Source of the DNA: an uncultured Bacillota bacterium
Lineage (GTDB): Bacteria; Bacillota; Clostridia; Christensenellales; UBA1242
Assembly (NCBI GenBank): GCA_949283975.1
Contig: CASDUK010000003.1
Span: 175,655-239,654 of the forward strand
Direction of reading: 5' to 3'
Length of the DNA stretch: 64,000 bases
In this document: piece by piece, positions 1,714-21,968 of the stretch
Layout of the letters: each line of letters begins with the position of its first letter
Position numbering within the stretch: the first letter of the stretch is position 1
Program-made: the position numbers and the translations under genes
The notes under the pieces: generated by a model
The model's input: only the letters and a program-made list of their open reading frames with translations
Databases searched by the model: none
Told to the model about the DNA's origin: nothing

Positions 1714-1748
1714 AAACCAAAAAATTTTGTCTTTAAAGGTGAGAAGAA

Positions 1749-2990: not shown

Positions 2991-3077
2991 AAATTAAATT
3001 AAAATTTGAATTTTTTAAAATAAATTAATATTTTTTATAAAAAAATTCAAAAAAACCATAAAATTCTACAAAAAAAC

Positions 3078-4037: not shown

Positions 4038-4050
4038 AGGAGAAATAACG

Positions 4051-4431: not shown

Positions 4432-4443
4432 TCTATAATATTT

Positions 4444-4481
4444 AAGCATGTGTAACCTGATTTAGTTACTCATGCTTTTTT
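4444..4481 (+). terminator. rho-independent terminator after the RHS tip/immunity pair
   Basis: AAGCATG-t-GTAAC (8-nt loop) GTTAC-t-CATGCTT followed by TTTTAT. Confidence 0.6.
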
Positions 4482-4503
4482 ATGTTTAAAGATTCACAAA
4501 TGA

Positions 4504-4620
4504 CGTCATCTTCTTATAGAGAACAACAAAAAACTCAATAAAACCTCCCTATTCTCTTATGACAAAGGTGGGAATATTACTGAACGCATTGAATATGCTT
4601 ATAGCACTCTCCCAGCTTAA
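4504..4620 (+). pseudogene. YD-repeat (RHS core) remnant with no start codon
   Basis: The translation ...TSLFSYDKGGNITERIEYAYSTLPA* is a canonical YD repeat. It is bounded by an in-frame TGA at 4501 and a stop at 4618-4620. Confidence 0.5.
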
Positions 4621-7441: not shown

Positions 7442-7470
7442 TTGACATTTTCATGTTTTTATTATATATT
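7442..7470 (+). promoter_or_regulatory. SigA-type promoter of the coiled-coil protein gene
   Basis: TTGACA (7442-7447), a 17-nt spacer, then TATATT (7465-7470). The ORF track's TTG start is in fact the -35 box. Confidence 0.55.
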
Positions 7471-7495
7471 TAAATTAAACAAAGGAGGGGAAAAG

Positions 7496-10400
7496 GTGGC
7501 AAAAAGTTCCAAAGAGGTGGAAAAAAGTTTCAAAGTTGCTTTAAAGGGCGAGCGAGCGGGCTTTGAGGGAGGCGAAATTGAGGTTTTGTTTGCAGAGAGC
7601 AGTAACTATATCGTTGGCCCTGGCCAAGGAAAAGACGGGGGAGCAGTTGTTGAAATTTCCTTTGATAAAAGCGGCCGTAAGAAGGTTAAACTTTTAAATA
7701 TAGCTGGCGAATTAGATAAATTTGGTTTTGAGGGAAAAGACTATGCAGAATTTGATGCAAAAACAATTACAACCTTTCCAGATTCCCACATTTCAATCCA
7801 GATAGAAAATCCAAATGGAAAAATTTCAACTGTTACTGTTGGAGGGGCGGATATCATAATTAGCGGCAAAGAGAAAAACAAATCACAAATTAGTTTCGAC
7901 AAGCCGCTAAATGTTGAACTTTCTAATAACTATTTTAAAGACATTTCGGCTGGAAATATTAATGTAAAAGCATTTCCTCCTCAAATTTTTGATGCAATTA
8001 AAGGCCTTAATGGCGTTACTGCCAAAGAATTTACAATTAAAGGGAAGGCCGTTAGGTTGTTTGCGGTTGGCAAGGAAGGAGAGGCTCAAATTTATTGCGG
8101 TGTTTCAAATAAGTTTATAAAACTTGAAGAAATCTTTGATCTAGGCGCCGGTGAAGGTTATCACACCCTTGGTTTCCGTTTCCGCGCAGGAGAAAAGGGA
8201 AAGATTGGAAAATATAACGCAAGAATTGAAGGCGTTACAGGCCAAGAAGTTGCCGCGCTAATGGACTTTGTTAAAACTCAAGCTGGTGAAACATTTGTTA
8301 AAACAGGTTCTCCGGGAATGCAAATTGGAGAGGCAAATTTAAATTTTAACCAAAAGCAAACCTCTCAAAAAATTGTTGATTTAACAAAGAAAGATTTAGA
8401 AGACGAGGAAAAGCTAAGGCTTAGAGAAGAGTCCGAGCGAAATAGGCTGGCCGCAGAAAAAGCCCAAGAACAAGCCGATAACGAAAGAGCAGAGAGGGAA
8501 AGGGCTCAGCAAGAAGCAGAACAAGCAAGACAAAAACAACAAGAGGCAGAAAACGAACGAGAACGTGCCCAAAGAGGGTTAGAAGAAGCTCAACAAAGCG
8601 CAGCGGCAAATAAGAATAAAATAATTGAACAAGATGCTACAATAGCGGAATTAAGCGCCAAGATAGCAGAGCTTGAAAGCTTGGGGCTTTCTGCCAAAGA
8701 GGTTCAGCGCTTACAAAACGAGCTTAACGCTAGAATTGAAGAACAACAAAAGAAAGAAGAAGAACTTAAACAAAGGGAAAAAGCCGTTGAGGAAGGGCAG
8801 GCTGCTTTAGATAAAGCAAGAAAAGAAGATGAGGAAAAGCGCAAGGCAGAAGAAAATGAAAAACGCGCGAAAGAAGCAGAAGAACTAAAGCAAAAAATTG
8901 AAACGCTTACAACATCTACTGGGAAATTAAAAGAGGCAAAAAGCAAGTATAGCGACAAATATAAAGCCTTACAAGCTAAGATAGAACGTGTTAAAGACTT
9001 GGCAAACCCAGAAAAGGCTGAGGAAGCAAAAGATGAAATTAAAAGGCTTAGGGCAGAAATAGATAGCAGTTATAACGAACTAGATAAACAATTTAATGAG
9101 GCTGAAGGTTTGGCGGAAGAAGTTAAAGAGGGACAAAAAGAAATTGAGAATCCGCCAACAGAAACGCCAGACGAAGTAAAAAACAACATTGAACAAGTTA
9201 AAAGCGAGGCAGAGGCCGCAGCAACGGAATGGGAAAAAGCAAAGGAGGATCAGTCAATGGATGAACTTAAAGAAGAAGTAGAGAATCTTCAAAATTTAGA
9301 GCAGCCTGAAAACGAAGAACAGCTTGAAAACGAAGAGCAACCCAAAAACGAAGAGGAGCTTGAAAGAGGAGAGCGCGTTATTCTTGGCCCGAGAGAAGAG
9401 CAAAACGAAGAAGAAAACCCTCAGCCGGAAGAAGATAAAAAACCAGAATCTCAAGAGGCTCAAGACAAAGAATCGCTAATTAAAAGATATGAAGAGCTTC
9501 TTCAAGAAACCCGAAAAAGCTTAGATCAACAAGAAAAAAATGTTTCGTTGCTAGCGCGCATGGAGAGCTTAATTGATGAACAGTTAAGCGACATAGGGCT
9601 TGAGAAAGGCGATGAAAGCCAAGAGGCTAAGCGCCAGGAATATGTTAAAGAGGCTTTAAGCTACTATCTAGAAAAAGGGCCAAACATCGACTCTGTCACC
9701 ACACCTGGTCTTGACAGCGACAAATATGACATCGGGAGGACAGAAGATGTAAGGCAGAGAATTAACGCTGGATTGGAAAACGGCAAAGAAAAGTTAATAG
9801 AGCAAGGCAAAGAACTTAAAGAACTTCGCGAAAAAATATTAGAAGCAGATCCGGAACAGCTTACATTTGATGATCGCGTGGCATATCGTGGAGTTATCAA
9901 AGGAATTGAAAATGCAACCGGAATAAACTTTACCCAAACCGAGCCGGGAAATTTTCAGCGTCAGCAAACAGAAATTAGGCAAGTTGACAATTTAACAGAA
10001 ACACAAAACTTTGCCCAAACCGAGCAAGAAAACCCTCAGCCGGAGCAAACGGAAATACAAAACCTTGCTCAAACCGAGCAAGAAAATCCTCAGCCGGAGC
10101 AAACGGAAACACAAAATCTTGCTCAAACAGGGCAAGAAAAGCCTCAGCCAGAGCAACAAGCGCAACAGCCGCCAGAAAACAACCCAGAAGAAGACAAGAA
10201 AGATGAAAAGAAGAAAAAACAGGCTTCGCCTGAACAAAGCGAATTCAAACGCGGCCAAGTTTGGCGCGGCGTTAAATATTCTCTCCTCGGAGCGCTTTGC
10301 GGGCTTTTGTTTGTTGCAACGCTTCTGCTTGGCCTTGCCGGAATGCTTCCAGTTTTCTTCATCTGTTTGGCAAGCACAATTGGCGCATGCGTAATTACAT

Positions 10401-10894
10401 CTGGAGAAGCAACCGAGGACATTATTAAGGCAAAAAACCAATCGTTAAAAGCTAAAACAGAGAAGAACAAGCAAAGAGAAGAAGAACTTAGCAGAGAGAT
10501 TGAAAGAGAAAATCAGGCAGAACAAGAGGCAGAACAAGAGGCCGAAGAAGAACAAACCGTTCAGGAGCAACACGAGGAAGAGCAAGTTCAAGAAGAACAG
10601 CCTGTTGAAGAACAAGTTCAAGAGGAAAATGGGGAAGAACAAACCGCTCAGGAGCAACAAGAAAACCCAGCCATGGCGGAAGAACCCGTTGAAACCCAAG
10701 AGCAAGAAGAACAAACAGAACCAACAGCTCCAACTGAAACAGAGCAGGTTGAATTCACCCCATCAGAGGCAAGTCCAGACCCTCAAAGGATTGAACAGGG
10801 GCTTGCAGGTTCGGCTCTTGCAACAGAAACTGCGTTTGAAAGACAAGCTAATGCAATTAATGCCCAACATCAAGATGATGGAAGAGGAATTTAA
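7496..10894 (+). CDS. large acidic coiled-coil membrane protein of unknown function (1132 aa from the GTG start)
   Basis: The GTG at 7496 lies 6 nt after AAAGGAGGGG. A globular N-domain of about 300 aa is followed by about 600 aa of E/K/Q-rich heptad-like sequence. Then come a hydrophobic hairpin (YSLLGALCGLLFVATLLLGLAGMLPVFFICLASTIGACVI) and an E/Q-rich tail. Confidence 0.6.
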   Translation: MAKSSKEVEKSFKVALKGERAGFEGGEIEVLFAESSNYIVGPGQGKDGGAVVEISFDKSGRKKVKLLNIAGELDKFGFEGKDYAEFDAKTITTFPDSHISIQIENPNGKISTVTVGGADIIISGKEKNKSQISFDKPLNVELSNNYFKDISAGNINVKAFPPQIFDAIKGLNGVTAKEFTIKGKAVRLFAVGKEGEAQIYCGVSNKFIKLEEIFDLGAGEGYHTLGFRFRAGEKGKIGKYNARIEGVTGQEVAALMDFVKTQAGETFVKTGSPGMQIGEANLNFNQKQTSQKIVDLTKKDLEDEEKLRLREESERNRLAAEKAQEQADNERAERERAQQEAEQARQKQQEAENERERAQRGLEEAQQSAAANKNKIIEQDATIAELSAKIAELESLGLSAKEVQRLQNELNARIEEQQKKEEELKQREKAVEEGQAALDKARKEDEEKRKAEENEKRAKEAEELKQKIETLTTSTGKLKEAKSKYSDKYKALQAKIERVKDLANPEKAEEAKDEIKRLRAEIDSSYNELDKQFNEAEGLAEEVKEGQKEIENPPTETPDEVKNNIEQVKSEAEAAATEWEKAKEDQSMDELKEEVENLQNLEQPENEEQLENEEQPKNEEELERGERVILGPREEQNEEENPQPEEDKKPESQEAQDKESLIKRYEELLQETRKSLDQQEKNVSLLARMESLIDEQLSDIGLEKGDESQEAKRQEYVKEALSYYLEKGPNIDSVTTPGLDSDKYDIGRTEDVRQRINAGLENGKEKLIEQGKELKELREKILEADPEQLTFDDRVAYRGVIKGIENATGINFTQTEPGNFQRQQTEIRQVDNLTETQNFAQTEQENPQPEQTEIQNLAQTEQENPQPEQTETQNLAQTGQEKPQPEQQAQQPPENNPEEDKKDEKKKKQASPEQSEFKRGQVWRGVKYSLLGALCGLLFVATLLLGLAGMLPVFFICLASTIGACVITSGEATEDIIKAKNQSLKAKTEKNKQREEELSREIERENQAEQEAEQEAEEEQTVQEQHEEEQVQEEQPVEEQVQEENGEEQTAQEQQENPAMAEEPVETQEQEEQTEPTAPTETEQVEFTPSEASPDPQRIEQGLAGSALATETAFERQANAINAQHQDDGRGI
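10001..10162 (+). repeat. 3 x 54-bp in-frame tandem repeat (18-aa unit TQNxAQTEQENPQPEQTE)
   Basis: Three consecutive near-identical 54-nt units can be read directly: TQNFAQTEQENPQPEQTE, IQNLAQTEQENPQPEQTE and TQNLAQTGQEKPQPEQQA. Confidence 0.85.
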
Positions 10895-10957: not shown

Positions 10958-12166
10958 ATGGAAAGAGTTGTTCTGCATTGCGATTTAAATAATTTCTATG
11001 CAAGTTGTGAGTGCTTAATCGAGCCCAGCCTCAGCGGAAAACCTGTTGCTGTTGGCGGAAGAGAGGAGGAGCGCCACGGCGTTGTTGTTGCCGCAAATTA
11101 TGAGGCAAAAAAGTTTGGGGTTAAATGCGGCGTTACAACCTTTCAGGCAAAAAAACTCTGCCCAGAAATCGTTATTTGCCAGCCGAAATTTGAAATATAC
11201 AACAAATTTTCGCGCCGTGTTAGAAAAATCTATGAAGAATATTCCGACCGTGTAGAGCCATTTTCAATTGACGAGTGTTTTATTGACATTACAGAAAGCA
11301 AAAATTTTGGAAATCCAAAACAAATTGCAGACGCAATTAGAGAAAGGGTTAAAAATGAGATTGGTCTAACAATTTCCGTTGGGGTTAGTTTTAACAAAAC
11401 CTTTGCAAAAATTGGAAGTGATTTAAAAAAGCCAAATGCAACAACAGTTATAACCAAGGAAAACTTTAAACAAGTTGTTTGGCCTCTTCAAATTGGGGAG
11501 ATGTTTGGAGTTGGGAAAAAAACCAAGGAAAAACTTTTAAAAATTGGAATTAACACAATTGGCGATCTTGCAAATTTTGACAAAAAATATTTAGTTAAAG
11601 AATTTGGAAAAGTTGGCGAAGAGCTTTCAAACAAGGCAAACGGGCTGGACGACGAAGAAGTTAAACCAACTTCTTTTAAGCAAGCCCCAAAGAGCATTGG
11701 CAACAGCACAACTTTTTACAAAGATCTTTCAGAGAGGAAGGAAATTGAACTTGGATTTTGCGTAATTGCCGAAAGTGTTGTCCGCCGCATGATAAAAAAT
11801 AACATAAAAACCTGCAAGACGGTTTCAATTGTTGTTCGAGACAGCAAGCTTAGATTCTATCAAAAACAGTGTCAAATTTTGCCTTCCAGAAGCAGCCAAG
11901 AAATTTCAAAAACCGCAATAAAACTTTTCTTTGACAACTTTTCTCAAATTAAAGATGTTAGGCTTCTTGGAATTTCAGTCAGCGGGTTTGATGAAGACGG
12001 TCAGCTTTCTCTGTTTTCAAAACCGGAAAGGGACATTGACGAAGTTGTCTATCAAATAAGAAATAAATTTGGAGCGGGGAGCATTGTTAGGGCAAACGCA
12101 CTTATGAACAAAAAAATTGCCGCCGCGCTAGATAGAGAACAACTAGATAAAAATAGTGACTTATAA
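10958..12166 (+). CDS. dinB: DNA polymerase IV (Y-family translesion polymerase)
   Basis: VVLHCDLNNFYASCE, FSIDECFIDIT and SVGVSFNKTFAKIGSDLKKP are typical Y-family catalytic motifs in a 402-aa product. Confidence 0.9.
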   Translation: MERVVLHCDLNNFYASCECLIEPSLSGKPVAVGGREEERHGVVVAANYEAKKFGVKCGVTTFQAKKLCPEIVICQPKFEIYNKFSRRVRKIYEEYSDRVEPFSIDECFIDITESKNFGNPKQIADAIRERVKNEIGLTISVGVSFNKTFAKIGSDLKKPNATTVITKENFKQVVWPLQIGEMFGVGKKTKEKLLKIGINTIGDLANFDKKYLVKEFGKVGEELSNKANGLDDEEVKPTSFKQAPKSIGNSTTFYKDLSERKEIELGFCVIAESVVRRMIKNNIKTCKTVSIVVRDSKLRFYQKQCQILPSRSSQEISKTAIKLFFDNFSQIKDVRLLGISVSGFDEDGQLSLFSKPERDIDEVVYQIRNKFGAGSIVRANALMNKKIAAALDREQLDKNSDL

Positions 12167-12292: not shown

Positions 12293-12321
12293 TTTACTTT
12301 TTTTATTTTTTTTGATATAAT
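12293..12321 (+). promoter_or_regulatory. candidate promoter for tRNA-Arg
   Basis: TTTACT, a 17-nt spacer, then TGaTATAAT (extended -10, 12313-12321), about 28 nt upstream of the tRNA 5' end. Confidence 0.45.
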
Positions 12322-12349: not shown

Positions 12350-12426
12350 GCGCCGCTAGCTCAGCTGGATAGAGCGTTGGTCTACGGAACCAAAGGTCAG
12401 GGGTTCGAATCCCTTGCGGCGCACCA
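12350..12426 (+). tRNA. tRNA-Arg (anticodon ACG), CCA encoded
   Basis: I folded the cloverleaf by hand. Acceptor GCGCCGC/GCGGCGC, D stem GCTC/GAGC, and anticodon stem TTGGT/ACCAA with loop CTACGGA (ACG at 12384-12386). The T arm is AGGGG-TTCGAAT-CCCTT, followed by A-CCA. Confidence 0.92.
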
Positions 12427-12565
12427 TCAAATTCCCTTTATTTTAAGGCAATCTAGCGATTTTGAGAGTCGCTAGATTTTTGTTTTAACCACAAAATTAT
12501 AAAATAATTTTTATAACAAATTCATTTTTAATTACCACAATCGGCAAAATATAAATAATACAATT
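12382..12565 (+). repeat. left copy of the 184-bp direct repeat (tRNA 3' 45 nt plus 139 bp), attL-like
   Basis: It matches 19550-19733 with 4 mismatches that I can see. Identity starts exactly at the first nucleotide of the anticodon loop. Confidence 0.85.
12453..12486 (+). terminator. terminator downstream of tRNA-Arg (duplicated at 19621-19654)
   Basis: CTAGCGA, a 9-nt loop, TCGCTAG, then ATTTTTGTTTT. Confidence 0.55.
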
Positions 12566-12626
12566 TAATTTTTATAACAAATTCATTTTTAATTACCACA
12601 ATCGGCAAAATATAAATAATACAATT
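12505..12626 (+). repeat. 61-bp unit duplicated in tandem (present once in the right-hand copy)
   Basis: TAATTTTTATAACAAATTCATTTTTAATTACCACAATCGGCAAAATATAAATAATACAATT occurs at 12505-12565 and again at 12566-12626. Confidence 0.85.
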
Positions 12627-12655
12627 TTCATCAAAAAAATGGTAAAATTTGGCGA

Positions 12656-12677
12656 TGTCTACGAATTGTCTACGAAT
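12656..12677 (+). repeat. 2 x 11-bp tandem TGTCTACGAAT (a third copy at 19339-19349)
   Basis: This is a perfect tandem dimer near the left island arm. A single identical copy in the same orientation lies 5 nt after the last cargo stop codon. Confidence 0.8.
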
Positions 12678-12687
12678 TTTTCCAAAA

Positions 12688-12776
12688 TTTATGCAAATTA
12701 TGTTTTGTGTTGTATCGTTTCACAATGTGTTTTATTGTATCGTTTTAAAAAAAATAAGGGCAGGAATTTTCTTCCT
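12688..12776 (+). repeat. scaffold repeat A, copy 1
   Basis: TTTATGCAAATTA-TGTTTTGTGTTG...AAAATAAGGGCAGGAATTTTCTTCCT recurs at 19738-19962, where a 134-bp insertion interrupts it. It contains a hairpin that reads as a terminator on the minus strand. Confidence 0.75.
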
Positions 12777-13056
12777 ACCCTAAATTTTTACATTTCTGCA
12801 TCTTGTTTTTTCTTTAATCTTCGCTTTTTCCCAGCTTTCTTTCAAGTTCTTCAATCTCATCATCAAGACTTTTATACTCGCTATTTTCTTCTTTATCTTC
12901 TTTTAAAGCACTGGCTTATAACACTTGCCGATTGCAATTTTGAAGAAAAGTCAAGATGACTATAAACAAGAATTTAAACTTATTTACAAAATTGTAAAAA
13001 AATATAGAAGAGTTTATTATTTTATATTTTAAATGTAGTATTTTATTAAAAAAATA

Positions 13057-13065
13057 TGTTATAAT
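13057..13065 (+). promoter_or_regulatory. extended -10 promoter element of the island operon
   Basis: TGtTATAAT lies 19 nt upstream of the ATG at 13084. The same ATGTTATAAT string precedes the ABC-F gene at 19997-20006. Confidence 0.45.
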
Positions 13066-13083
13066 CAAATTAATGAGGTCAAT

Positions 13084-13599
13084 ATGAAAGATTTTTATAC
13101 TGATATAAGTAAATTGAAATCCGTATTGCGACGAGGTTGGTTGTTTCGAGATTTTAAAATTGATAGGATAGAAAGTGATGCTGAGCATACATATTCCATG
13201 TTGATGTTGGCGTTTTATTTTTTTTGTAAAAACAAACTAAAAAATTTAGATTTTATCAAAATTATGAAAATGATTTTGTGCCACGATTTGGGAGAAATAG
13301 AGATTGGTGATATTACTCCTTTTGATAATTATGACATTAAGTTAAAACATAGTCAAGAACAGAATGCCATAAGAACAATATTTGAAAAATATAAGTTGTC
13401 CGAACTTTTAAGTATTTGGCAGGAGTATAACGAACGTAAAACTCCTGAATCCAAATTTGTCAAGTTTATTGATAATTTGGATTATTTGTGCCAGGCAAAT
13501 TGTTATAAGAAAGATAATGCTAAACAATTTAAAACTTTATATGAAGAATGTTCAAAAAAGCATCCAGAAATAATAGAGGTTTTCAATGAAGATTTATAA
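13084..13599 (+). CDS. HD-domain phosphohydrolase, YfbR/HDDC2-like 5'-deoxynucleotidase family
   Basis: LKSVLRRGW...ESDAEHTYSM...LCHDLGEIEIGDITP...KFIDNLDYLCQA follows the HD_3 pattern (R-GW, ES-AEH, HD-xE-GD, D-l-qa). Confidence 0.7.
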   Translation: MKDFYTDISKLKSVLRRGWLFRDFKIDRIESDAEHTYSMLMLAFYFFCKNKLKNLDFIKIMKMILCHDLGEIEIGDITPFDNYDIKLKHSQEQNAIRTIFEKYKLSELLSIWQEYNERKTPESKFVKFIDNLDYLCQANCYKKDNAKQFKTLYEECSKKHPEIIEVFNEDL

Positions 13600-14080
13600 T
13601 TCTTTATTTAGCGAGGTGATAAATTTATTAAAATCTAAAACTAAATATGATGTTTATGTGGATATGGATGGGGTAATATGTGAGTATAGATACGGAGAAG
13701 GAGTTAAAATATTAAATGGAGAAACATCGGTTTATAGCGAGAAAAGACCTATTCAATCAGTCATAAAATTAATAAAGAAATATTACAAAAGAAATAATTT
13801 TTTTATATTAACTTCATGTATTCACAAACAGCAGATAAATGCAAAAAAAGAATGGATAAAAAAATATATGTCTTTCTTTAACATAGACAATGTTTATTGT
13901 ATCCTTAGCGAAGATTTTAATAAAAGAATTGAATATAAAGTGGATTTTATAAATCAATCATTGAAAGATAGAAAGACATATTCAATTTTGATTGAAGACA
14001 CGCATGAAATATTAAAAAAATCTTGGGAGAATAACAGAAATCAATTACTACCTGTTTTGGTTATAAATTTAATAAAGTAG
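13586..14080 (+). CDS. HAD-superfamily 5'(3')-deoxyribonucleotidase-like protein (NT5C family)
   Basis: VYVDMDGVICEY is a DxDG nucleophile motif and LIEDT lies near the C-terminus. At 164 aa it has the size and layout of NT5C/YorS-like proteins. It overlaps the upstream gene by 14 nt. Confidence 0.5.
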   Translation: MKIYNSLFSEVINLLKSKTKYDVYVDMDGVICEYRYGEGVKILNGETSVYSEKRPIQSVIKLIKKYYKRNNFFILTSCIHKQQINAKKEWIKKYMSFFNIDNVYCILSEDFNKRIEYKVDFINQSLKDRKTYSILIEDTHEILKKSWENNRNQLLPVLVINLIK

Positions 14081-14089
14081 AGGTTGAGA

Positions 14090-15589
14090 ATGAAAAATTT
14101 AATTATTGATTGTTATACAGATGAACCTTCCGGTTTAGGAGCCCCTCCATATTTAAGTGTGCATTCAAGATATTTGGCTGGTGCACTTAAATTTACGAAT
14201 CAAGAATATGAATACATAAACATAGATGATTTAAGATTTGCAAGTGGTGAAGAGCTTTGGAATGATAACACATTAAATAAAAGAGTAATAAATCACACAA
14301 AGGAAATTACAGAGACTGAGAATATTTTGTTGTCTGCTGAAAGAATATTTGTAATTATGGGTTGTTTTGTTGATTATAGTTATTTATCTTGTGAACCGCC
14401 AACTTTTACTGAGATTGAAAAATTATTATCTAGCTATAGAAATAAAGAAATCATTTTAATGTATGCGCTTGGTTCTAAAATAATTTCAAAAGAAGAATTA
14501 GATAAGACATTGCCGAAAAATTTATTTGATAAAGTGATTTTTGGCAATTTCTATAATTATATTTTGTTTGGCAATGAAAATGATTATCTGCCACATTATG
14601 AAGCTTTAAGCAAGATTTCTGTCTGTTCTGCTGATATTGTTAAAAGATTGCCTCGTCCACTTATCTATGAAATTGAGACTGCTACTGGTTGTAATCGAAA
14701 ACCAGGATGTAAGTTTTGTATAGAAAGCATTAGAGGAATAAACCATACATCAAGACCTGTCGATGATATTGTTGCTGAAATGAAGTCTCTTTACAGCGAA
14801 GGTGTGCGATATTTTAGATTGGGCAGACAACCCAATTTTTTCGCTTATTTTAATGCATTACCTAATAAAGTTGAAGAATTATTTCAAAAAATTTGGACAA
14901 ATTGTCCTGAAATCAAAGTATTACACATCGACAATGTAAGTCCTCACAATGTAAATACATCTTCTGGGAAAAAGATAGCAGAAATTGTTGCAAAATATTG
15001 CACCAGCGGTAATATCGCACCTTTTGGTGTAGAATCTTTTGATCCAAAAGTGCGAAGTATTAATAATTTAAACGGTTCTGTAGAAGACATAATGAAGTCC
15101 ATTGAAATTATAAATGAAATTGGAAGTAAAATTACCGATGAGGGGACAAGACAATTTTTGCCTGGAATTAATATAATTTATGGTTTGGAAGGTCAAAGTG
15201 AAAACACTTTACAATATAATTTAGAGGCCTTTTCTTATATCCTTGAGCATTATTATGTTCGAAGAATTTTTGTAAGGAACTTAACTTCTCCACATGGAGA
15301 GCTGTTTGGAGAAAAACAAAAAAGTGGCTTTGAAACTTTTAAAACGAAAATTGTGGACAAATTTTCATTACCAATGTTGAAAAAAGTTTATCCTATGAAC
15401 ACAATTTTAAAACATGAAAGAGTTGAGATGGTAATAAATGGTGATAGCATATTAAGACAAATGGAGACTTGTCCTGAAAGAGTTGTTATAAAAAATAAAA
15501 TATTAAACTTAGACGATTTTTACACTATTAAAATTGTAGGATACATATCTGATAGAGTCCTTATGGGAGAAATAATATGCAAAGAATAG
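14090..15589 (+). CDS. large radical SAM enzyme with an N-terminal Rossmann/B12-binding-like domain and non-canonical CX5CX2C spacing
   Basis: The ATG at 14090 follows AGAGG. ETATGCNRKPGCKFCIES sits at about aa 200, followed by RYFRLGRQPNF, APFGVESFDPKVR and PGINIIYGLEGQSE, which follow the radical SAM core order. The product is 499 aa. Confidence 0.65.
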   Translation: MKNLIIDCYTDEPSGLGAPPYLSVHSRYLAGALKFTNQEYEYINIDDLRFASGEELWNDNTLNKRVINHTKEITETENILLSAERIFVIMGCFVDYSYLSCEPPTFTEIEKLLSSYRNKEIILMYALGSKIISKEELDKTLPKNLFDKVIFGNFYNYILFGNENDYLPHYEALSKISVCSADIVKRLPRPLIYEIETATGCNRKPGCKFCIESIRGINHTSRPVDDIVAEMKSLYSEGVRYFRLGRQPNFFAYFNALPNKVEELFQKIWTNCPEIKVLHIDNVSPHNVNTSSGKKIAEIVAKYCTSGNIAPFGVESFDPKVRSINNLNGSVEDIMKSIEIINEIGSKITDEGTRQFLPGINIIYGLEGQSENTLQYNLEAFSYILEHYYVRRIFVRNLTSPHGELFGEKQKSGFETFKTKIVDKFSLPMLKKVYPMNTILKHERVEMVINGDSILRQMETCPERVVIKNKILNLDDFYTIKIVGYISDRVLMGEIICKE

Positions 15590-16179
15590 CTATCATCATT
15601 CCATTTTTCAACATGGCGGCTGAATATGAACTACAAAGGAAGATTAAAAACAAAAATTTATTCTATCAAATTTTTAAAATAGATTATAAAACCCATCAAA
15701 AAGAAGATGAAGAAAACTTTTATAATGAATTAAAAGCAAATCTTGAAACACTTATAAACAAGGTTGAAGCCTTACAATTTGATAAGATTATCTTGCTATG
15801 CTCATCTTTAAATTCAAAATTTAATTTTGAAATACTGGTGTCAATTAATGATATTGTGGCAACATTTATAAAAGAAAATAACCTTAATTATAAATTAGTG
15901 CTTTTATCTCCTTATTCTGAGAAAACAACCAAAGAAACAATAAAAGCATTTCATAATTTAGGTGTCTGTTTTAAAAGTGCTATAAATAACGAATTGCTAG
16001 GTTCAATCAATTACTTTAATTTTGGGAATAACATTGTACAATTTATAAAAGAACATAACCTTGAAAACGAAAAGATTTTCGTTAGTTGTACTAATATTCC
16101 CGTAATAGATGCACAAACAGAATTAAAAGATATAGTTTCATCAAACACAATTCTTATAGATTATTTAAATTCAATTTAA
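15577..16179 (+). CDS. Asp/Glu/hydantoin-racemase-fold protein (maleate isomerase / arylmalonate decarboxylase-like)
   Basis: IAIIIPFFNMAAEYE, IILLCSSLNS, LLSPYSEKTTKETIKAFHNLG and IFVSCTNIP...VSSN parallel the two-Cys maleate-isomerase pattern (IVPSSN, CTsGS, TPY, SCTN, SSN). Confidence 0.5.
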   Translation: MQRIAIIIPFFNMAAEYELQRKIKNKNLFYQIFKIDYKTHQKEDEENFYNELKANLETLINKVEALQFDKIILLCSSLNSKFNFEILVSINDIVATFIKENNLNYKLVLLSPYSEKTTKETIKAFHNLGVCFKSAINNELLGSINYFNFGNNIVQFIKEHNLENEKIFVSCTNIPVIDAQTELKDIVSSNTILIDYLNSI

Positions 16180-16190
16180 GAGAGGTTTAA

Positions 16191-16940
16191 ATGGAGAAAA
16201 GCAAGCTTGAAAAAATATTAAGCATTTTGGCGAATGATATAATGCTGCAGCAAGAAGTGAAAAATAATTTTACAAACAATTTATGGTGGCCAAGTACAGT
16301 TAAAGATAAACGACTTAGATTAATAATAGCGGGTTTATCTACAAGAATTTCTTATTCAATGATAGAAACATATAAAAAGGTTATAAATAACATCATTAGC
16401 AAAGGTTATGATAATTTAGTTTTATTGAACGACGAAGAAAAACTTGATATGATTAAACCACTTGGTCTTTCAACGACAAGATTAAATTATATAAATTCAA
16501 TGATTAAATTTATTTCTTCACATAGTGATTTAAATAACTTAAAAGATGATGTCTTTATTAAATTAATAAATAATGAAGTGACCGGGGCATCCTATAAAGT
16601 AGCTCAATGTTGTCTTCTTTATTATAAAGGATATCCTTGCTCAATTATGCCTGTTGATTCTGGAATGAAAGACGTGCTACTTCCTTGTTTAGGATACCCA
16701 AAACAAAAATCTGGAATTGGACATGAATTTGCGCGCTTATTATTGGAAGATGATGTATCTAAAATTGATAAAAAACAATTTATAAAAGAAAACAATTTAA
16801 ATATAACTGAAGAGTCATTTAATTGGTGGGCGCATCTATCTTTAATTTATTATAAAAGACAGCACTGTAACAAAAAAGACGCAAATTGTTCCTTACATAA
16901 AAATGGTATAGATTTAAAGGAGATATGTTTAGAAAAATGA
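16191..16940 (+). CDS. HhH-GPD-superfamily (DNA glycosylase-like) protein
   Basis: LIIAGLSTRISYSM...IKPLGLSTTRLNYINSMIKFI...VTGASYKVAQCCLLYYKGYPCSIMPVDSGMKDVL has the AlkA/Nth-like layout. That layout is a helical N-domain, a hairpin-helix element, then an Asp about 20 residues later. The tail is Cys-rich. Confidence 0.4.
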   Translation: MEKSKLEKILSILANDIMLQQEVKNNFTNNLWWPSTVKDKRLRLIIAGLSTRISYSMIETYKKVINNIISKGYDNLVLLNDEEKLDMIKPLGLSTTRLNYINSMIKFISSHSDLNNLKDDVFIKLINNEVTGASYKVAQCCLLYYKGYPCSIMPVDSGMKDVLLPCLGYPKQKSGIGHEFARLLLEDDVSKIDKKQFIKENNLNITEESFNWWAHLSLIYYKRQHCNKKDANCSLHKNGIDLKEICLEK

Positions 16941-17464
16941 TTATAATAGAAGGTTTGGATGGTGTAGGTAAATCTACAGTTGTTGAAAGGTTGAAAACAT
17001 TTGGTTTTATAAATCTGCATTATGATTACGATAGTTCCAATTCTGATTTGATACAAAAATATTTATTCATTTTAAATTATAACAATTTAGATAAATATAT
17101 TGCAGACAGATCTTTTTTTAGTGAAATGGTTTATGGTCCAATTTTAAGAAATGGAAGCAGAATCTCAGATGAGCAATTTATAAAATTATTAAAAGAGTAT
17201 TCTAAAATAGGAGCAAAAGTAATTTATTTAACCAGTGATAAAGATGTTTTATTAAAAAGGCGTCAAGAAGATGAAAAGGATTTTAAAACGCTTACTGATT
17301 ATTATTCAGAGTTAAATATTCAATATGAGAAAGTTATGAATATAACGGCGAAATTTATTCCCGTATTACATATTGATACAAGTGGAAAAAGTGTAGAACA
17401 AACCTTTAAGCAGTGTGAAGATTTTGTTTTTGGTGGCAAAAAAGATGATGAAAGAATTTTATGA
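16925..17464 (+). CDS. thymidylate-kinase-like dNMP kinase
   Basis: IIIEGLDGVGKST is the Tmk P-loop pattern and DRSFFSEMVYG parallels the Tmk DRY-xS-xAYQ motif. The product is 179 aa. Confidence 0.65.
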   Translation: MFRKMIIIEGLDGVGKSTVVERLKTFGFINLHYDYDSSNSDLIQKYLFILNYNNLDKYIADRSFFSEMVYGPILRNGSRISDEQFIKLLKEYSKIGAKVIYLTSDKDVLLKRRQEDEKDFKTLTDYYSELNIQYEKVMNITAKFIPVLHIDTSGKSVEQTFKQCEDFVFGGKKDDERIL

Positions 17465-18833
17465 TATTATTTTTGTCGGAAACACTTCAATAGACAAAAA
17501 ACAATGTGTTAATGGCAAATATGTCGAAACTTTGGGAGGTTCAGCATTTAATTCTTACTGTGCAACATTGGCGGTTGACAAACACCAAAACAACAAAATT
17601 TATAGTAACTTTTTAAATAATTTAAAATATATTAACTTGAATAATAGAATTTATAGTCCAAATTATTTTTATATAGATGAAAAACAGAATACTTGTTTAA
17701 GCGATATAAAATCCATAGTTAAATTGGAGAAGAACTTTAATTGTAGACATTTACATATTTCAATTCGAAAAGGAGTTGATTTTCGTTCTTTCTTAGATAG
17801 CAAAATAGAATATGAGACCTTATCTATTGATGTTATGATCCATAGCGTAAAAGATTATGTAGATGACATAAAAGAATTTGCAAGCAAAATAGACTTCTTG
17901 TTTTGCAATATGCAAGAATATGAGTTTTTAAAAAATATTGAAATTAAAGGCGTATTTATAATAACAAATGAGCAAAATCCAGTTGAAATTTATTATAACA
18001 AAGATAAAAATGATTATTATAATGTTCCAAAAATTAAAACTATAAAATCAACCACAGGCGCTGGCGATTCTTTTATTGGAGGCTTTTTATCTGAATATAT
18101 AAAATCTAAGAATATAGATATGTCTGTTGAGAGTGGTATTAAATGTTCACAAATATGCTTGAAGTTATACTCAAACGAACAGTTTAAAAACAAAAAAATC
18201 ACAAAAAAAACAGTAACATTTAAACTTCCTCAAAAAATTATTATCATAGGTCCATCATGTGCAGGGAAAAGTTTTGTAAGTAAAAAACTGCAAGAGAAAT
18301 GGCCTTTATACAAAATTTACGACGACCTTGAAGTATTGAAAGAAAGAGTTGATCTTGACAGTGGCTTAAGCCTTGGTGCAAATTTTCATTATTATAAGAA
18401 CCTTAAATTTGCTACACCAAAAACACAGAAAATGGAGAATGGCACTTTTAAAATTATTGACGAATCATTGTGGAAGGAAGTTATTGAAATAATTTGCAAA
18501 GTTTGCTCAAAATATTCTATAATTGAATTCTCAAGAGGTACAACTTCAAATTCAAAAGAAGAGCAACGGAAAGTTTATATTGAGTATATAAATTATATAG
18601 AAAATATCTTTAAAAATGATAAAATAATAGTTCTTTTTGTTGATAAAAATTATAAAAAAAGGCTTAAAAGAAATATAAAAAGGAAACAAACAGGTGGGCA
18701 TGAAGTAGATATTGAAACTTTTAAAACTTATTACAAATTTTCTTGCAAGCCTTCAAGTTATAAAAATATATTAAAAATAAATTCAAATTTGAATATAGAT
18801 AAGATAATAAAAAAGATAGGAGGAAAAATATGA
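17445..18833 (+). CDS. fusion protein: PfkB/ribokinase-like sugar or nucleoside kinase plus a C-terminal P-loop kinase-like domain
   Basis: The N-half has FVGNTSIDK, GGSAFNS and TTGAGDSFIGGFL (PfkB signatures). The C-half has IIIIGPSCAGKSFVSKKL (Walker A) with a lid-like basic segment. The start could be 17415, 17445 or 17448; I chose 17445 because GGTGG lies upstream. Confidence 0.6.
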   Translation: MMKEFYDIIFVGNTSIDKKQCVNGKYVETLGGSAFNSYCATLAVDKHQNNKIYSNFLNNLKYINLNNRIYSPNYFYIDEKQNTCLSDIKSIVKLEKNFNCRHLHISIRKGVDFRSFLDSKIEYETLSIDVMIHSVKDYVDDIKEFASKIDFLFCNMQEYEFLKNIEIKGVFIITNEQNPVEIYYNKDKNDYYNVPKIKTIKSTTGAGDSFIGGFLSEYIKSKNIDMSVESGIKCSQICLKLYSNEQFKNKKITKKTVTFKLPQKIIIIGPSCAGKSFVSKKLQEKWPLYKIYDDLEVLKERVDLDSGLSLGANFHYYKNLKFATPKTQKMENGTFKIIDESLWKEVIEIICKVCSKYSIIEFSRGTTSNSKEEQRKVYIEYINYIENIFKNDKIIVLFVDKNYKKRLKRNIKRKQTGGHEVDIETFKTYYKFSCKPSSYKNILKINSNLNIDKIIKKIGGKI

Positions 18834-19150
18834 ATTTAAATGAAATCCAAAAACAAATATGGAACAATAAAGTGAAAAAAGGGTTTAACACAACAGATGT
18901 ATGCAAGGAATTTTGCTTTTTGAATGGAGAAGTTGCCGAAGCTTTTGAGGCTTACCATAAAAAGAAAAGTAAAGAGGAATTGGGTTCTGAGCTTGCTGAT
19001 ATTGCTATATATTTGTTAGGCTTATCAGAAATGCTAGGATTTTCATTGGAAGATGAAATTAATACAAAGCTGAAAATAAATGAAAACAGAGTATATCAAA
19101 ATATTAATGGTGTGATGTTAAAAAAGGAAAATAAAGATGATAATGGCTAA
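18830..19150 (+). CDS. MazG-like all-alpha nucleoside triphosphate pyrophosphohydrolase
   Basis: GEVAEAFEAY...ELGSELADIAIYLLGLSEMLGFSLEDEI follows the MazG EExxE/D pattern. The product is 106 aa, with an ATGA overlap to the upstream gene. Confidence 0.6.
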   Translation: MNLNEIQKQIWNNKVKKGFNTTDVCKEFCFLNGEVAEAFEAYHKKKSKEELGSELADIAIYLLGLSEMLGFSLEDEINTKLKINENRVYQNINGVMLKKENKDDNG

Positions 19151-19334
19151 GTTAATAGAGAAACAAAACGATAGACTTATTTTTATAACATTAGACAATA
19201 AAAAAATTATAACTTCTTATATAAACTCTTTAAAAATAGGAGAAGATTATATTTTTCAAACATCTACATCTGGATATTCTAAAATAAGCGATTCTAAAGG
19301 TAACATTTTTAATGTGTTAATTTTACCTAATTAA
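19137..19334 (+). CDS. small hypothetical protein (65 aa), last gene of the island operon
   Basis: It overlaps the MazG-like gene by 14 nt, follows AAGGAAA, and shares the operon's strand and composition. I recognise no motif. Confidence 0.4.
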   Translation: MIMAKLIEKQNDRLIFITLDNKKIITSYINSLKIGEDYIFQTSTSGYSKISDSKGNIFNVLILPN

Positions 19335-19400
19335 CAAATGTCTACGAATTTGTGTTTGATTTTTGCAAAGTTTATGAAAATTGTGCCGTTTTGTGATGTG

Positions 19401-19515
19401 TTTTTATGTTTTGTTTTTGTTTAATGTTGTATATTAAAAGACAAAGCCTATCCGCCTTATTTTATAAGGGCTATAGGCTTTTTATTAAATGATAAAACAT
19501 GATAAAAAATGGTGT
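19401..19515 (+). repeat. scaffold repeat B, copy 1 (contains the operon terminator at 19443-19484)
   Basis: TTTTTATGTTTTGTTTTTGTTTAATGTTGTATATTAAAAGACAAAGCCTAT...ATAGGCTTTTT...AATGGTGT recurs at 21756-21864 with scattered substitutions and short indels. The hairpin AAAGCCTAT/ATAGGCTTT is followed by a T-run. Confidence 0.75.
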
Positions 19516-19549
19516 AAAAATAGCAAATTATGGCATTTTAAAGTGTTTG

Positions 19550-19733
19550 CTACGGAACCAAAGGTCAGGGGTTCGAATCCCTTGCGGCGCACCACTAAAT
19601 TCCCTTTATTTTAGGGCAATCTAGCGATTTTGACAGTCGCTAGATTTTTGTTTTAACCACAAAATTATAAAATAATTTTTATAACAAATTCATTTTTAAT
19701 TACCACAATCGGCAAAATATAAATAATACAATT
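19550..19733 (+). repeat. right copy of the 184-bp direct repeat; 19550-19594 is a displaced 3' half of tRNA-Arg (attR-like)
   Basis: CTACGGAACCAAAGGTCAGGGGTTCGAATCCCTTGCGGCGCACCA is identical to tRNA positions 12382-12426. No 5' half is present. Confidence 0.85.
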
Positions 19734-19737
19734 AGGC

Positions 19738-19962
19738 TTTATGCAAATTATATTATCGGAAGTCGAACTTGCTTGCAAGAGTGAGACTGATGGTTATACA
19801 TACTATGTGATGAGTGTGCGTAACACACAAATTCATTAGAATTGATAAAATTTTATGATAATAAAATTTTATCATCACATAGTCTATGTTTTGTGTTGCA
19901 TTATTTTGCGATGTGTTTTATTGTGTTGTTTTATAAAAAATAAGGGCAGGAATTTTATTCCT
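19738..19962 (+). repeat. scaffold repeat A, copy 2, interrupted by a 134-bp hairpin-rich insertion (about 19751-19884)
   Basis: The flanks align to 12688-12776. The insertion holds nested inverted repeats: ACTATGTGATGA/TCATCACATAGT, GTGTG/CACAC and GATAAAATTTTA/TAAAATTTTATC. Confidence 0.7.
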
Positions 19963-19997
19963 AATTATTCCTAGATATTGATGCTTTACAAAAATAA

Positions 19998-20006
19998 TGT
20001 TATAAT
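19998..20006 (+). promoter_or_regulatory. extended -10 element upstream of the ABC-F gene
   Basis: TGtTATAAT lies 24 nt upstream of the ATG at 20031, and RBS AGGAG lies between them. Confidence 0.4.
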
Positions 20007-20030
20007 GAAAAAGAGTTAGGAGTTATATTA

Positions 20031-21716
20031 ATGATTATTTTAGATGTAAATAAAGTATCAAAAAATTTTGGTTATGGTCAACTTTTTGAGAATCTTTCGT
20101 TTTCACTAAATGAAGGAGAGTCTATTTCTATAGTAGGACCTAATGGTAGTGGCAAGTCAACATTACTAAAAATGATAGCAGGACTTGAAAAAACAGATAG
20201 CGGTAGCATCAACATAAAGAAAGGTTATAAAGTTGCTTATTTAGATCAAACAGGTTCCAGCATAATAGATGATAGATGTGTGTATGATATTTTAAAAGAT
20301 GCTTTTTCAGAATTGAATAAGATGGAAGCACGATTAAACCAATTGCAAGATTTATTAAATGATACAAGTTTATCTGAAGAGCAGTATAACAATGTTATGG
20401 TAAAATATTGTGACTTAATGGAAAAATTTTCGATGGCTGGTGGCTATGATATTGAAACAAATATAAATACAATTGTTGAAGGATTAAAAATAGATAAAGA
20501 TATATTAAATCGTAGTTATAACGATTTGAGCGGTGGTGAAAAAACACTTATTCAACTTGCTAAAGCATTATTAATTAAGCCTGATTTATTTTTGCTTGAT
20601 GAGCCTACAAATCATTTGGACATTAATAGAATTGAATGGTTGGAAAGTTATATCAAATCTTTTAAAGGTGCCACAGTTATAGTTTCACATGATAGATATT
20701 TCCTTGATAAAATGAGTAATAAAATTTTAGAAATAGATACCCCCAATGTAAATTTATATTATACAAATTATACGGGTTATTTAGAAGAAAAGGAAAGAAA
20801 TTTTCAAAAAGCAATGGCAGACTTCAATTCACAACAATTATATTTTAAACGCCTACAGGAGCAAATTAACTATTTTGCAGATGTGGGAATGAACAGAAAC
20901 AGTTCTACAATGACAAAAAGAGCAGCTGTATTACAGGCAAGATTAGACAGAGAAAAAGCAAAGGCTTTAAAAAAACCAAAAGAACATAGAAGATTAAATA
21001 TAGGTTTTGATGAAGAACGAAAATCAAGTAAAAGAGTTATAGCAGTTGATGAGTTAGCCGTAACATTACCTAATGGGAAAAAAATACTTGACGGCATAAA
21101 TTTAAATATCTGTTCTGGCGAAAGAGTTGCTTTGATTGGAGCTAATGGTAGTGGCAAGTCAACATTTATTAAAACGATAATGGGGGAGCAAGACCTATCT
21201 ATAAAAGGCAATATTTTTGTGGGACCAAGAGTTAAAATAGGTTATCTGCCACAAATTATTAGTTTTCCTAACGATAATCAGACCCTTCTAGAATATTTCC
21301 AAGCTGAAAATGGAATTGCAGAACAAAGAGCAAGGCAAATATTAGCGGGATTTCAATTTTATAAAGAAGATGTCAATAAAAAAGTGAAAAATCTTTCAGG
21401 CGGTGAGAAAATAAGAGTAAAACTTGCTGAACTTTTACAACAAAAAATTAATACACTAATTTTTGATGAACCAACAAACCATATAGATATTCCTACAAAA
21501 GAGGTCCTTGAAGAAGCAATTGAAGATTTCGATGGAACTCTAATATTTGTTAGTCATGATAGATATTTTATCAATAAATTTGCCGATAAGACAGTAGAGT
21601 TTAAAGATGGAAGTATTGAAACTTATTTGGGCGGTTATGATGATTACAAAGTTGAAAAGGCTAATCGAGAAAAATTATTAAATAATAATGTTACAGAACA
21701 AAAAAAGAAAATATAA
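20031..21716 (+). CDS. ABC-F family ATPase (two ABC domains, no TM domain); possible ARE-type ribosomal protection protein
   Basis: Walker A is GPNGSGKST and GANGSGKST. The signatures are LSGGEKTLIQLAKALL and LSGGEKIRVKLAELL. Walker B is LLDEPTNHLD and IFDEPTNHID. A linker of about 100 aa joins the domains (YYTNYTGYLEEKE...RLDREKAKALKKPKE). Confidence 0.85.
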   Translation: MIILDVNKVSKNFGYGQLFENLSFSLNEGESISIVGPNGSGKSTLLKMIAGLEKTDSGSINIKKGYKVAYLDQTGSSIIDDRCVYDILKDAFSELNKMEARLNQLQDLLNDTSLSEEQYNNVMVKYCDLMEKFSMAGGYDIETNINTIVEGLKIDKDILNRSYNDLSGGEKTLIQLAKALLIKPDLFLLDEPTNHLDINRIEWLESYIKSFKGATVIVSHDRYFLDKMSNKILEIDTPNVNLYYTNYTGYLEEKERNFQKAMADFNSQQLYFKRLQEQINYFADVGMNRNSSTMTKRAAVLQARLDREKAKALKKPKEHRRLNIGFDEERKSSKRVIAVDELAVTLPNGKKILDGINLNICSGERVALIGANGSGKSTFIKTIMGEQDLSIKGNIFVGPRVKIGYLPQIISFPNDNQTLLEYFQAENGIAEQRARQILAGFQFYKEDVNKKVKNLSGGEKIRVKLAELLQQKINTLIFDEPTNHIDIPTKEVLEEAIEDFDGTLIFVSHDRYFINKFADKTVEFKDGSIETYLGGYDDYKVEKANREKLLNNNVTEQKKKI

Positions 21717-21755
21717 CATAGATGATGAACGTTCATTATAAATAAGCATTCTACA

Positions 21756-21864
21756 TTTTTTATGTTTTGCTTTTGTTTGATGTTGCATATTAAAAGACAA
21801 ACCTATTTGCCTTAAAGGGTTATAGGCTTTTAATTAAATAATAAAATAAGATAGAAAATGGTGT
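21756..21864 (+). repeat. scaffold repeat B, copy 2 (hairpin partly degraded)
   Basis: It aligns to 19401-19515, and similarity ends at AATGGTGT in both copies. Confidence 0.7.
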
Positions 21865-21968
21865 CTTTCTTCAACATATACATAAAATGTTTCCAAACAA
21901 TTTGAAAATTGTTTAAATTTTGTTGGAGCAGAATAAAAATTGTGGTAAACTAATGTCAGGAGGATTAT

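Follow-up and report, generated by a model that had tools for sequence, protein, structure and literature searches.

A probable non-autonomous genomic island at the tRNA-Arg(ACG) gene of an uncultured Bacillota bacterium and its nine-gene cargo operon

How does a DNA segment with the architecture of an integrated element come to lie at a transfer RNA gene when it encodes no recognizable recombinase? The question is raised by a stretch of 64,000 nucleotides from an uncultured Bacillota bacterium (Clostridia, Christensenellales, UBA1242; assembly GCA_949283975.1, contig CASDUK010000003.1, positions 175,655 to 239,654 of the forward strand). This whole stretch is called the window hereafter, and its positions are counted from its first letter. 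Within it, an intact tRNA-Arg(ACG) gene is followed some 7.1 kb downstream by a second copy of its own 3' half. The original prediction for this locus, made from the sequence by a model, proposed an integrated element with a left attachment site (attL) in which the tRNA is regenerated, a right one (attR) with the displaced fragment, and no integrase of its own. The empty site that we found in a sister strain supports this core reading. We consider, with a probability of roughly 0.6, that the segment from about 12382 to 19549 is a non-autonomous integrated genomic island at a tRNA gene, similar to the cis-mobilizable elements (CIMEs).

The repeats, the empty site, and the missing recombinase

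The tRNA-Arg(ACG) gene (Table 1) has a promoter-like site upstream (12293-12321) and is the sole tRNA gene that ARAGORN and Rfam identify in the 64-kb window. Its 5' part up to 12381 is chromosomal, and its 3' part, from the anticodon loop on, lies within the left copy of a direct repeat of 184 nt. The two copies of this repeat are 98% identical, with four mismatches (12427, 12428, 12446, and 12466 on the left, corresponding to 19595, 19596, 19614, and 19634 on the right). Their identity begins at C12382, where the anticodon loop (CTACGGA) starts; the five preceding bases are TTGGT on the left, where they belong to the anticodon stem, and GTTTG on the right. The window has exactly two occurrences of the 45-nt 3' part of the tRNA, and 100 shuffled sequences have none. 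The tail of 139 nt that follows it in both copies includes the terminator hairpin of the tRNA (12450-12478 and 19618-19646; fold z-score -5). The left copy ends in a tandem duplication of 61 bp. The right copy lacks this duplication, as do two short-read assemblies of the strain, whose contigs (L002, L004, and L005) have a single unit. The repeat length, the four mismatches, the start at the anticodon loop, the 45-nt fragment, and the shared terminator had all been described before and were reproduced here, and Tandem Repeats Finder (TRF) agrees on the extra duplication. The repeat had also been called far longer than a normal att core. The length of 184 bp stands, but the repeat is better read as the element's own copy of the tRNA tail and terminator, closely matching the chromosomal one, rather than as a long att core.

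Homologues of the DinB protein encoded in the left flank led us to a contig of a sister strain (L055; ENA ERZ16268159 scaffold_617, 50.7 kb). Its DinB is 98% identical to that of the window, and its flanks are 95.6% (left) and 97.4% (right) identical. The order of features in this contig is DinB, an intact tRNA-Arg(ACG), the tail, and a gene for an ABC-F protein that lies 627 bp after DinB; the 7.1-kb segment is lacking and thus represents a real insertion/deletion polymorphism. This is the empty site that the original prediction had proposed to look for, with the tRNA followed by the tail of the right copy and then by the ABC-F gene; the prediction had added that an arrangement shared by all relatives would indicate an ancient non-mobile duplication, and here a close relative lacks the island. 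At the four single-nucleotide polymorphisms (SNPs) that distinguish the repeat copies, the sister strain carries the allele of the right copy in 4/4 cases (R-type), and the right copy matches the empty site in allele state as far as 19695. Hence, the chromosomal allele is that of the right copy, and that of the left copy (L-type) is the incoming one. The L-type alleles and the 61-bp duplication on the left are what would be expected if the crossover took place at the anticodon loop or close to it, left of 12427.

The locus is also covered by further assemblies of this strain. The contigs from Logan and ENA (ERR10610591 and ERZ17292904) show 100% identity to the window in both flanks as well as in the island. 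These short-read assemblies break exactly at the repeats, and the island is recovered as a separate contig. In Logan, this contig (L004, ERR10610591_32626) is a 7107-bp cycle with identical 30-nt ends, which corresponds to the island together with a single repeat copy, in which the 61-bp unit occurs once. In ENA, one contig (L002, k87_19357253, assembled with k = 87) runs through the left flank, the tRNA, and an R-type repeat, and ends in two island-type bases. The sample behind these contigs thus appears to have the R-type in both copies, which explains the collapse of the assembly graph. Since the remaining sequence is identical, the four SNPs and the duplication by which it differs from the window suggest that the repeats have undergone gene conversion or recombined with each other. 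For the cycle and the R-type left copy, gene conversion from one repeat to the other is one fitting explanation, and an island in circular or tandem form is another. We considered the cycle as evidence for an excised circle and rejected it as not diagnostic, since identical repeats collapse to the same graph.

The composition of the segment is that of foreign DNA. Its GC content is 26.9%, against 37.3% in the left flank and 37-38.5% in the flanks overall. The earlier claim that the island is more AT-rich than its flanks therefore holds on the left but fails on the right, where there is no compositional step at 19733 and the AT-rich block goes on through the ABC-F gene to ~21.97 kb (28.9% GC). 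Both this block and the homology at the junctions, described below, reach beyond the interval from 12350 to 19733 that had been assigned to the island.

Searches with Pfam, NCBIfam, PHROGs, and PADLOC found no recombinase, transposase, relaxase, replication, or phage structural domain in the open reading frames (ORFs) of the island, nor any integrase, relaxase, coupling protein, or type IV secretion system domain between 12.4 and 19.5 kb. The prediction of no recombinase ORF from 12.4 to 22 kb is in agreement with these scans, as none of the ORFs scanned in that interval has a recombinase domain. When the whole island was compared with phages and plasmids by blastn, the tRNA was the only match, and neither a relative of the radical SAM protein from the island nor the att tail or the exact tRNA half was found in IMG/VR. 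The island lacks the own integrase, the replication or primase genes, and the helper-exploitation genes of phage satellites, PHROGs giving nucleotide-metabolism matches only. It also lacks the transposase domain and the terminal inverted repeats of transposons and insertion sequences, and is flanked instead by a 184-bp repeat derived from a tRNA. It is neither a phage satellite, a transposon, nor a plasmid.

Routes into the tRNA gene

Among tyrosine integrases that target tRNA genes, crossover in the anticodon loop is the commonest, and the canonical sublocations are the anticodon loop, the T loop, and the T/acceptor junction (PMC4383910). Of the 3919 islands in Islander, 3760 contain a 3' fragment, and an anticodon-centered attachment site on the element (attP) is recorded for 2083 (PMC4383910). 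We propose that the island was brought in as a circular DNA whose attP would have consisted of the 45 nt at the 3' end of tRNA-Arg(ACG) and the terminator tail of that gene. Such a circle would recombine with the chromosomal tRNA gene at or beside the anticodon loop, so that the element's copy would complete the tRNA (attL) and the original 3' half would be displaced 7.1 kb downstream (attR). As no recombinase is encoded in the island, the enzyme would have come from another element or has been lost. Any present-day excision would need a helper integrase acting in trans, perhaps by binding sites at both ends of the island, or RecA acting on the 184-bp repeats, which would now also be substrates for RecA-mediated deletion and conversion. 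The original prediction had listed mobilization in trans, fixation after loss of the integrase, and homologous recombination between the repeats, and all three are compatible with the observations.

The candidate binding sites are copies of an 11-mer, GTCTACGAATT, which occurs three times in the window, always on the same strand and only at the island ends, and is not found in the empty site of the sister strain. These copies could be arm-type sites. Two IMG/VR matches to the tandem pair turned out to be unrelated repeats. From the left repeat inward, the pair of GTCTACGAATT is followed by a GT-rich module, a frameshifted minus-strand ORF, the promoter TGTTATAAT, and nine genes. After the last of these cargo genes come the third GTCTACGAATT (19340), a terminator module (19401-19515), 34 nt, and the right repeat. 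We considered the tail of the minus-strand ORF with its terminator (12757-12930) as a possible integrase remnant beside attL, and rejected it: its only match is the 49-residue protein P0241, across two frameshifts (86% identity over the central part, E 3e-5, with the ends matching in another frame).

The modules at the two ends of the island have counterparts in the right flank. The GT-rich module (12699-12777) recurs upstream of the ABC-F gene, at 19885-19963, with 87% identity, and the terminator module recurs after this gene, at 21757-21864, where the sister strain has it too. The two ends of the island thus resemble the two flanks of the resident ABC-F gene. A search for regulatory RNAs in the repeated modules with Rfam gave tRNA only. 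In a more distant species (L057, whose DinB is 75% identical), an ABC-F homologue with 73% amino acid identity is separated from DinB by 5.4 kb and from a tRNA-Arg(ACG) by 1.5 kb. Together with the identical place of the gene in the sister strain, this indicates that ABC-F has long been resident in the clade and is outside the mobile unit. For the same reasons, and because no third tRNA fragment follows it, we rejected the ABC-F segment (19734-21968) as a second, recent sister element. Given a GC content at third codon positions (GC3) of 18%, against 33-39% in neighboring genes, it may have been acquired long ago at this hot spot. In the stretch from the tail to the ABC-F promoter, 267 nt of the window (19696-19962) are replaced in the sister strain (11572-11767) by 196 unrelated nt. 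The version in the window holds the element-like GT-rich module and a 32-nt palindrome (19843-19874), and may be the trace of an earlier related occupant in the lineage of the window. The cargo operon (13056-13065) and the ABC-F gene (19996-20005) share an extended -10 box, ATGTTATAAT, which in both cases is about equally far from the start codon.

The main rival to an integrase-mediated entry, which we regard as unlikely, is a purely homologous integration. A circle that had captured the 3' half of the tRNA and its tail from the same or a close chromosome would have gone in and out through Campbell-type single crossovers by RecA, and a site-specific recombinase would never have been involved. 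The long shared segment (184 bp, 98%) followed by further homologous modules agrees with this scenario, and so do the absence of a recombinase and the alleles of the left copy, which vary between otherwise 100%-identical assemblies as crossovers or gene conversion would make them do. However, the identity begins on the left at precisely the base with which the anticodon loop starts, a canonical integrase sublocation (PMC4383910), for which random capture gives no reason. Furthermore, 4/4 SNPs segregate as if the crossover had occurred within the first 45 nt, which are a quarter of the homology, and element-specific 11-mers flank the site in the manner of arm sites.

Several observations weigh against the integrase-mediated entry that we nevertheless favor. 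The near-identity over 139 nt past the end of the tRNA, and the 87% and 84% homology to the ABC-F flanks, exceed what an integrase needs, and the homology at the junctions could equally well have been produced by the capture of chromosomal sequence or by homologous recombination. The number of GTCTACGAATT copies is modest evidence, since 3 of 100 shuffles reach at least three matches. The sister strain could have lost the island through recombination between the repeats, and the polarity of the polymorphism is not proven. The left copy is R-type in the other assembly, so the allele pattern is unstable between samples, and a cyclic contig of 7107 bp is equally expected from the collapse of two identical repeats. 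Finally, no recombinase was found in the other scanned ORFs of the window, in a Pfam scan that skipped some ORFs of at least 150 residues. As no integrase was identified anywhere, the case for a site-specific step is entirely one of geometry.

It is highly improbable that the island is an artefact of assembly, in which a free circle or the DNA of another strain was threaded in through the shared 184 bp. The recovery of the island as a separate contig in the short-read assemblies, including the Logan cycle, would fit such an artefact, as would the fact that 19734-19845 is covered by no other contig. Against it, the copy-specific SNPs of the window begin 46 nt from unique flank on the left and 46 nt from unique island sequence on the right, distances shorter than a read or a k-mer, and mis-threading cannot create such linkages. 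The assembly error that the original prediction had named as a danger is thereby countered, since the SNPs of the left copy are unattainable by mis-threading a circle. Moreover, the ENA contig (k = 87) runs from the left flank through the tRNA and the repeat into island-type bases, and the island has no replication gene and resembles no DNA in plasmids or phages. Hardly credible either is an old, immobile segmental duplication of the frame of tRNA tail and ABC-F, with one ABC-F later replaced by the operon: the likeness of the island ends to the ABC-F flanks (87% upstream, 84-85% for the downstream module) and the lack of mobility genes would suit it, but the sister strain, at ~96-97% identity, precisely lacks the island, the repeats (98%) and the other modules (84-87%) do not fit a single event, the sequence after the terminator module (19516-19549) does not match that after its ABC-F counterpart, and a 96%-identical copy of the operon is found in a different context (L006, see below).

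The cargo operon and its distribution

The island carries nine co-directional and mostly overlapping genes (13084-19334) with their own promoter, whose extended -10 box was read from the sequence at 13057-13065 (TGTTATAAT), and their own terminator. Their positions and assignments are given in Table 1, together with the other features of the locus.

Table 1. Features of the tRNA-Arg(ACG) locus, in window coordinates
Feature	Position	Strand	Basis or remark
tRNA-Arg(ACG), intact	12350-12426	+	ARAGORN; Rfam tRNA model, 65.8 bits
Left repeat copy (attL side)	12382-12565	+	tRNA 3' 45 nt and 139-nt tail; L-type (non-chromosomal) allele at four positions
61-bp tandem duplication	12505-12627	+	TRF, 2.0 copies, 100% match; at end of left repeat
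GTCTACGAATT 11-mer, two tandem copies	12657-12678	+	Candidate arm-type recombinase-binding sites; TRF period 11
GT-rich module and hairpin	12699-12781	.	Minus-strand intrinsic terminator 12781-12757; fold z-score -4.4
Frameshifted copy of small acidic 49-residue ORF	12806-12930	-	Translations; sole database match P0241
HD-domain phosphohydrolase (HD_3 / YfbR-like 5'-deoxynucleotidase)	13084-13599	+	Pfam HD_3, E 2e-38; first operon gene
HAD/NT5C-like nucleotidase, weak assignment	13586-14080	+	PHROG polynucleotide kinase/phosphatase, 5'-3' deoxyribonucleotidase; orthologues with faint PF06941 NT5C
Radical SAM enzyme, 499 residues	14090-15589	+	Pfam Radical_SAM; MiaB/RimO three-domain fold
Amdase-like protein (Asp/Glu racemase superfamily)	15577-16179	+	Orthologues PF17645 Amdase; weak PDB match 2dgd, arylmalonate decarboxylase
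Divergent HhH-GPD-superfamily, DNA-glycosylase-like protein, 249 residues	16191-16940	+	PF00730 weak in family (alignment A4)
dNK / dTMP-kinase-like P-loop kinase	16925-17464	+	Pfam dNK 7e-9; PHROG thymidylate kinase 1e-22; PADLOC VakA 6e-8
PfkB-family kinase fused to second P-loop kinase-like region	17415-18833	+	Pfam PfkB 1e-11, weak Guanylate_kin; NCBIfam ribokinase/nucleoside-kinase-like
MazG-like nucleotide pyrophosphohydrolase	18830-19150	+	Pfam MazG-like 4e-8; PHROG pyrophosphatase 2e-13
65-residue ORF	19137-19334	+	ORF list; 51% identical copies in L022 and L023
GTCTACGAATT, third copy	19340-19350	+	200 bp upstream of right repeat
Right-end module with operon terminator hairpin (~19443-19481)	19401-19515	+	84-85% identity to 21757-21864
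Right repeat copy (attR side)	19550-19733	+	Displaced 45-nt tRNA 3' fragment (19550-19594) and 139-nt tail; chromosomal R-type allele
Resident ABC-F region, outside mobile unit	19734-21968	+	Leader with GT-rich copy (19885-19963), gene, terminator module (21757-21864); GC 28.9%
ABC-F gene, ribosomal-protection-like	20031-21716	+	NCBIfam NF000355, 457.7 bits (cut-off 380)

The operon is the more interesting part of the island: it is a conserved set of seven to nine genes with hundreds of homologues in gut bacteria, and combines two nucleotide or sugar kinases with three nucleotide phosphohydrolases. We found no published description of this gene combination in a literature search, and the profile libraries assign no function to it. 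From the gene content, the operon most likely makes, modifies, or detoxifies a (deoxy)nucleotide or a DNA base. A role in defense or in antibiotic production could be suggested only through guilt by association.

The radical SAM protein has 635 detectable homologues. Its cluster motif is an invariant CX5CX2C (C201/C207/C210; alignment A1) and not the canonical CX3CX2C. Its AlphaFold2 model (pLDDT 88) has as best Foldseek matches the methylthiotransferases MiaB and RimO (PDB 7mjx and 4jc0), with which it shares the three-domain architecture at TM-scores of 0.60-0.69. The island enzyme is only 14-16% identical to them, has CX5CX2C where they have CX3CX2C, and is found among nucleotide kinases and phosphatases, in contrast to their context of tRNA and ribosome modification. 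Only the fold is shared, as all NCBIfam scores fall far below the family cut-offs (28.6 bits against 251 for TIGR00089, and 31.6 against 357 for RimO). For the DNA-glycosylase-like protein, PF00730 gives a weak match in 13 of 15 family members, with a best E-value of 4.5e-6; the member in the window (E 0.029) is below the Pfam cut-off. This family member sits inside an operon of nucleotide kinases and phosphatases.

Prokaryotic viperins with their associated kinases, as well as OxsA and OxsB of oxetanocin biosynthesis, are nucleotide-analogue pathways that combine radical SAM enzymes with nucleotide kinases or phosphohydrolases. The operon would resemble them by functional analogy only, in that its radical SAM enzyme is accompanied by an HD phosphohydrolase, nucleotide kinases, and a MazG-type pyrophosphatase. 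One island kinase has a weak PADLOC match to VakA, and a related copy of the operon neighbors a defense system (L006). On the other hand, the radical SAM protein matches none of the PADLOC, Pfam, or NCBIfam models of these pathways, and OxsB turns up among the fold matches only as a remote one (rank 20).

Dozens of contigs from gut metagenomes carry the seven-gene core (NT5C-like gene through MazG) in conserved synteny, at ~55% identity, and its copies occupy unrelated chromosomal neighborhoods in many gut Firmicutes. It was not found in IMG/VR, plasmids, or phages, and the representatives of GTDB gave distant radical SAM homologues only. Closer relatives of the operon (74-77% identity) include the HD and 65-residue genes, the latter being kept in the closest ones, plus a NUDIX gene, and are on short contigs without mobility genes. 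A further copy (L006, positions 227-4519, from ERR6355293) is 96% identical in DNA. The homology starts at 13015 of the window, and the copy is preceded by an IetA/IetS defense pair and a DUF4062 protein in place of the tRNA and att region. Judged by these occurrences, the same operon moves between contexts and is horizontally mobile in this lineage.

In several unrelated contexts (L007-L014, L026, and L028), a tRNA gene (His-GTG, Arg-ACG, or Thr-GGT) is found 0.2-0.9 kb from the seven-gene core. We examined whether this reflects a general link of the operon to split tRNAs and rejected it, as fuzzy searches and Infernal gave no displaced fragments at the other tRNA-adjacent copies. Two contig ends have tRNA-like sequences of their own. 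Upstream of a 74%-related operon (L022, positions 1-360, ERZ27237431), a tRNA-Thr(GGT) on the minus strand (106-180) is accompanied at ~250-290 by a 41-nt 5' half of a second tRNA-Thr(GGT), which ends 2 nt past the anticodon loop; the flank motif TTGCTCCATAAAATT is repeated there. Next to a 77%-related operon (L021, positions 1-19, ERZ1667847), the end of the contig reads like tRNA-Ile(GAT) from the anticodon loop on, on the minus strand, over 19 nt only.

A broader scenario, which we offer quite speculatively and judge improbable in its entirety, is that the island belongs to a family of minimal att-only cassettes. Such cassettes would keep a tRNA-restoring attP and arm-type GTCTACGAATT sites, and would ride on the anticodon-loop-specific integrase of a helper. 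Their cargo would be an undescribed pathway of nucleotide or DNA modification, possibly antiviral or antibiotic-producing, built around the MiaB-fold radical SAM enzyme with CX5CX2C and the HhH-GPD-like protein, and widespread in gut Firmicutes.

Related systems and other features of the window

As a mobile element, the island is ordinary, since decayed or cis-mobilizable elements of this kind, islets at tRNA genes with flanking att sites and no integrase, are well known. Its value is that of a small, clear-cut case: the empty site is documented and attL occurs in two allele states, which suits it to the question of helper integrase versus RecA. Islander-type tDNA islands with an anticodon-centered attP (PMC4383910; Williams 2002, NAR 30:866, as cited there) are like this one in their regenerated tRNA and displaced 3' fragment of the same orientation, in crossover at the anticodon loop, in foreign composition, and in a precise empty site in a relative. 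An island-borne tyrosine integrase is a defining trait of these islands, and is lacking here.

The closest class is that of the CIMEs, which in Firmicutes are decayed derivatives of ICEs (integrative and conjugative elements) or IMEs (integrative and mobilizable elements) that keep attL and attR and have lost the genes for integration and transfer (PMC5704250). The island is similar in its att-like repeats at the 3' part of a tRNA gene, in its small size, in carrying cargo only, and in the lack of any integrase, relaxase, or conjugation gene. It retains attL and attR, and the integration and transfer genes are absent, which is an observation of absence rather than of loss. As in CIMEs, the site has signs of earlier related occupancy, namely the element-like modules upstream of the resident ABC-F gene. 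The island differs in that no remnant of a mobility gene points to descent from an ICE or IME, no helper of the same att specificity is known, and the shared sequence of 184 bp exceeds the part of the tRNA that has to be restored. IMEs and the minimal hitcher islands (iOriT; bioRxiv 10.64898/2026.01.13.699239) are also small and reliant on other elements for their mobility, but they keep an integrase and an oriT, whereas this island has no integrase.

The remaining ORFs that were scanned in the window show no recombinase, relaxase, replication, or phage structural domain of a mobile element, and encode core functions or have no Pfam family: they include DNA gyrase A and B, a class I aminoacyl-tRNA synthetase, the CCA-adding enzyme, a PP-loop protein, and an ORF of 6475 residues. 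The gene tables of the left flank in L001 and in the sister strain contain spore germination and cortex-lysis genes. The 6475-residue ORF is a single frame (38035-57462, plus strand), of which the first and last 2000 residues were scanned; a Peptidase_M26_N-like region in the last 2000 residues is the only Pfam signal above the curated cut-off, and the protein is probably a giant surface protein. Finally, a repetitive protein of 1150 residues (7442-10894, plus strand) is rich in Glu, Gln, and Lys, with internal repeats of the ENPQPEQTE type and one hydrophobic segment. The gene tables of L001 and L055 assign it to no Pfam family, and it is kept beside DinB in the sister strain.

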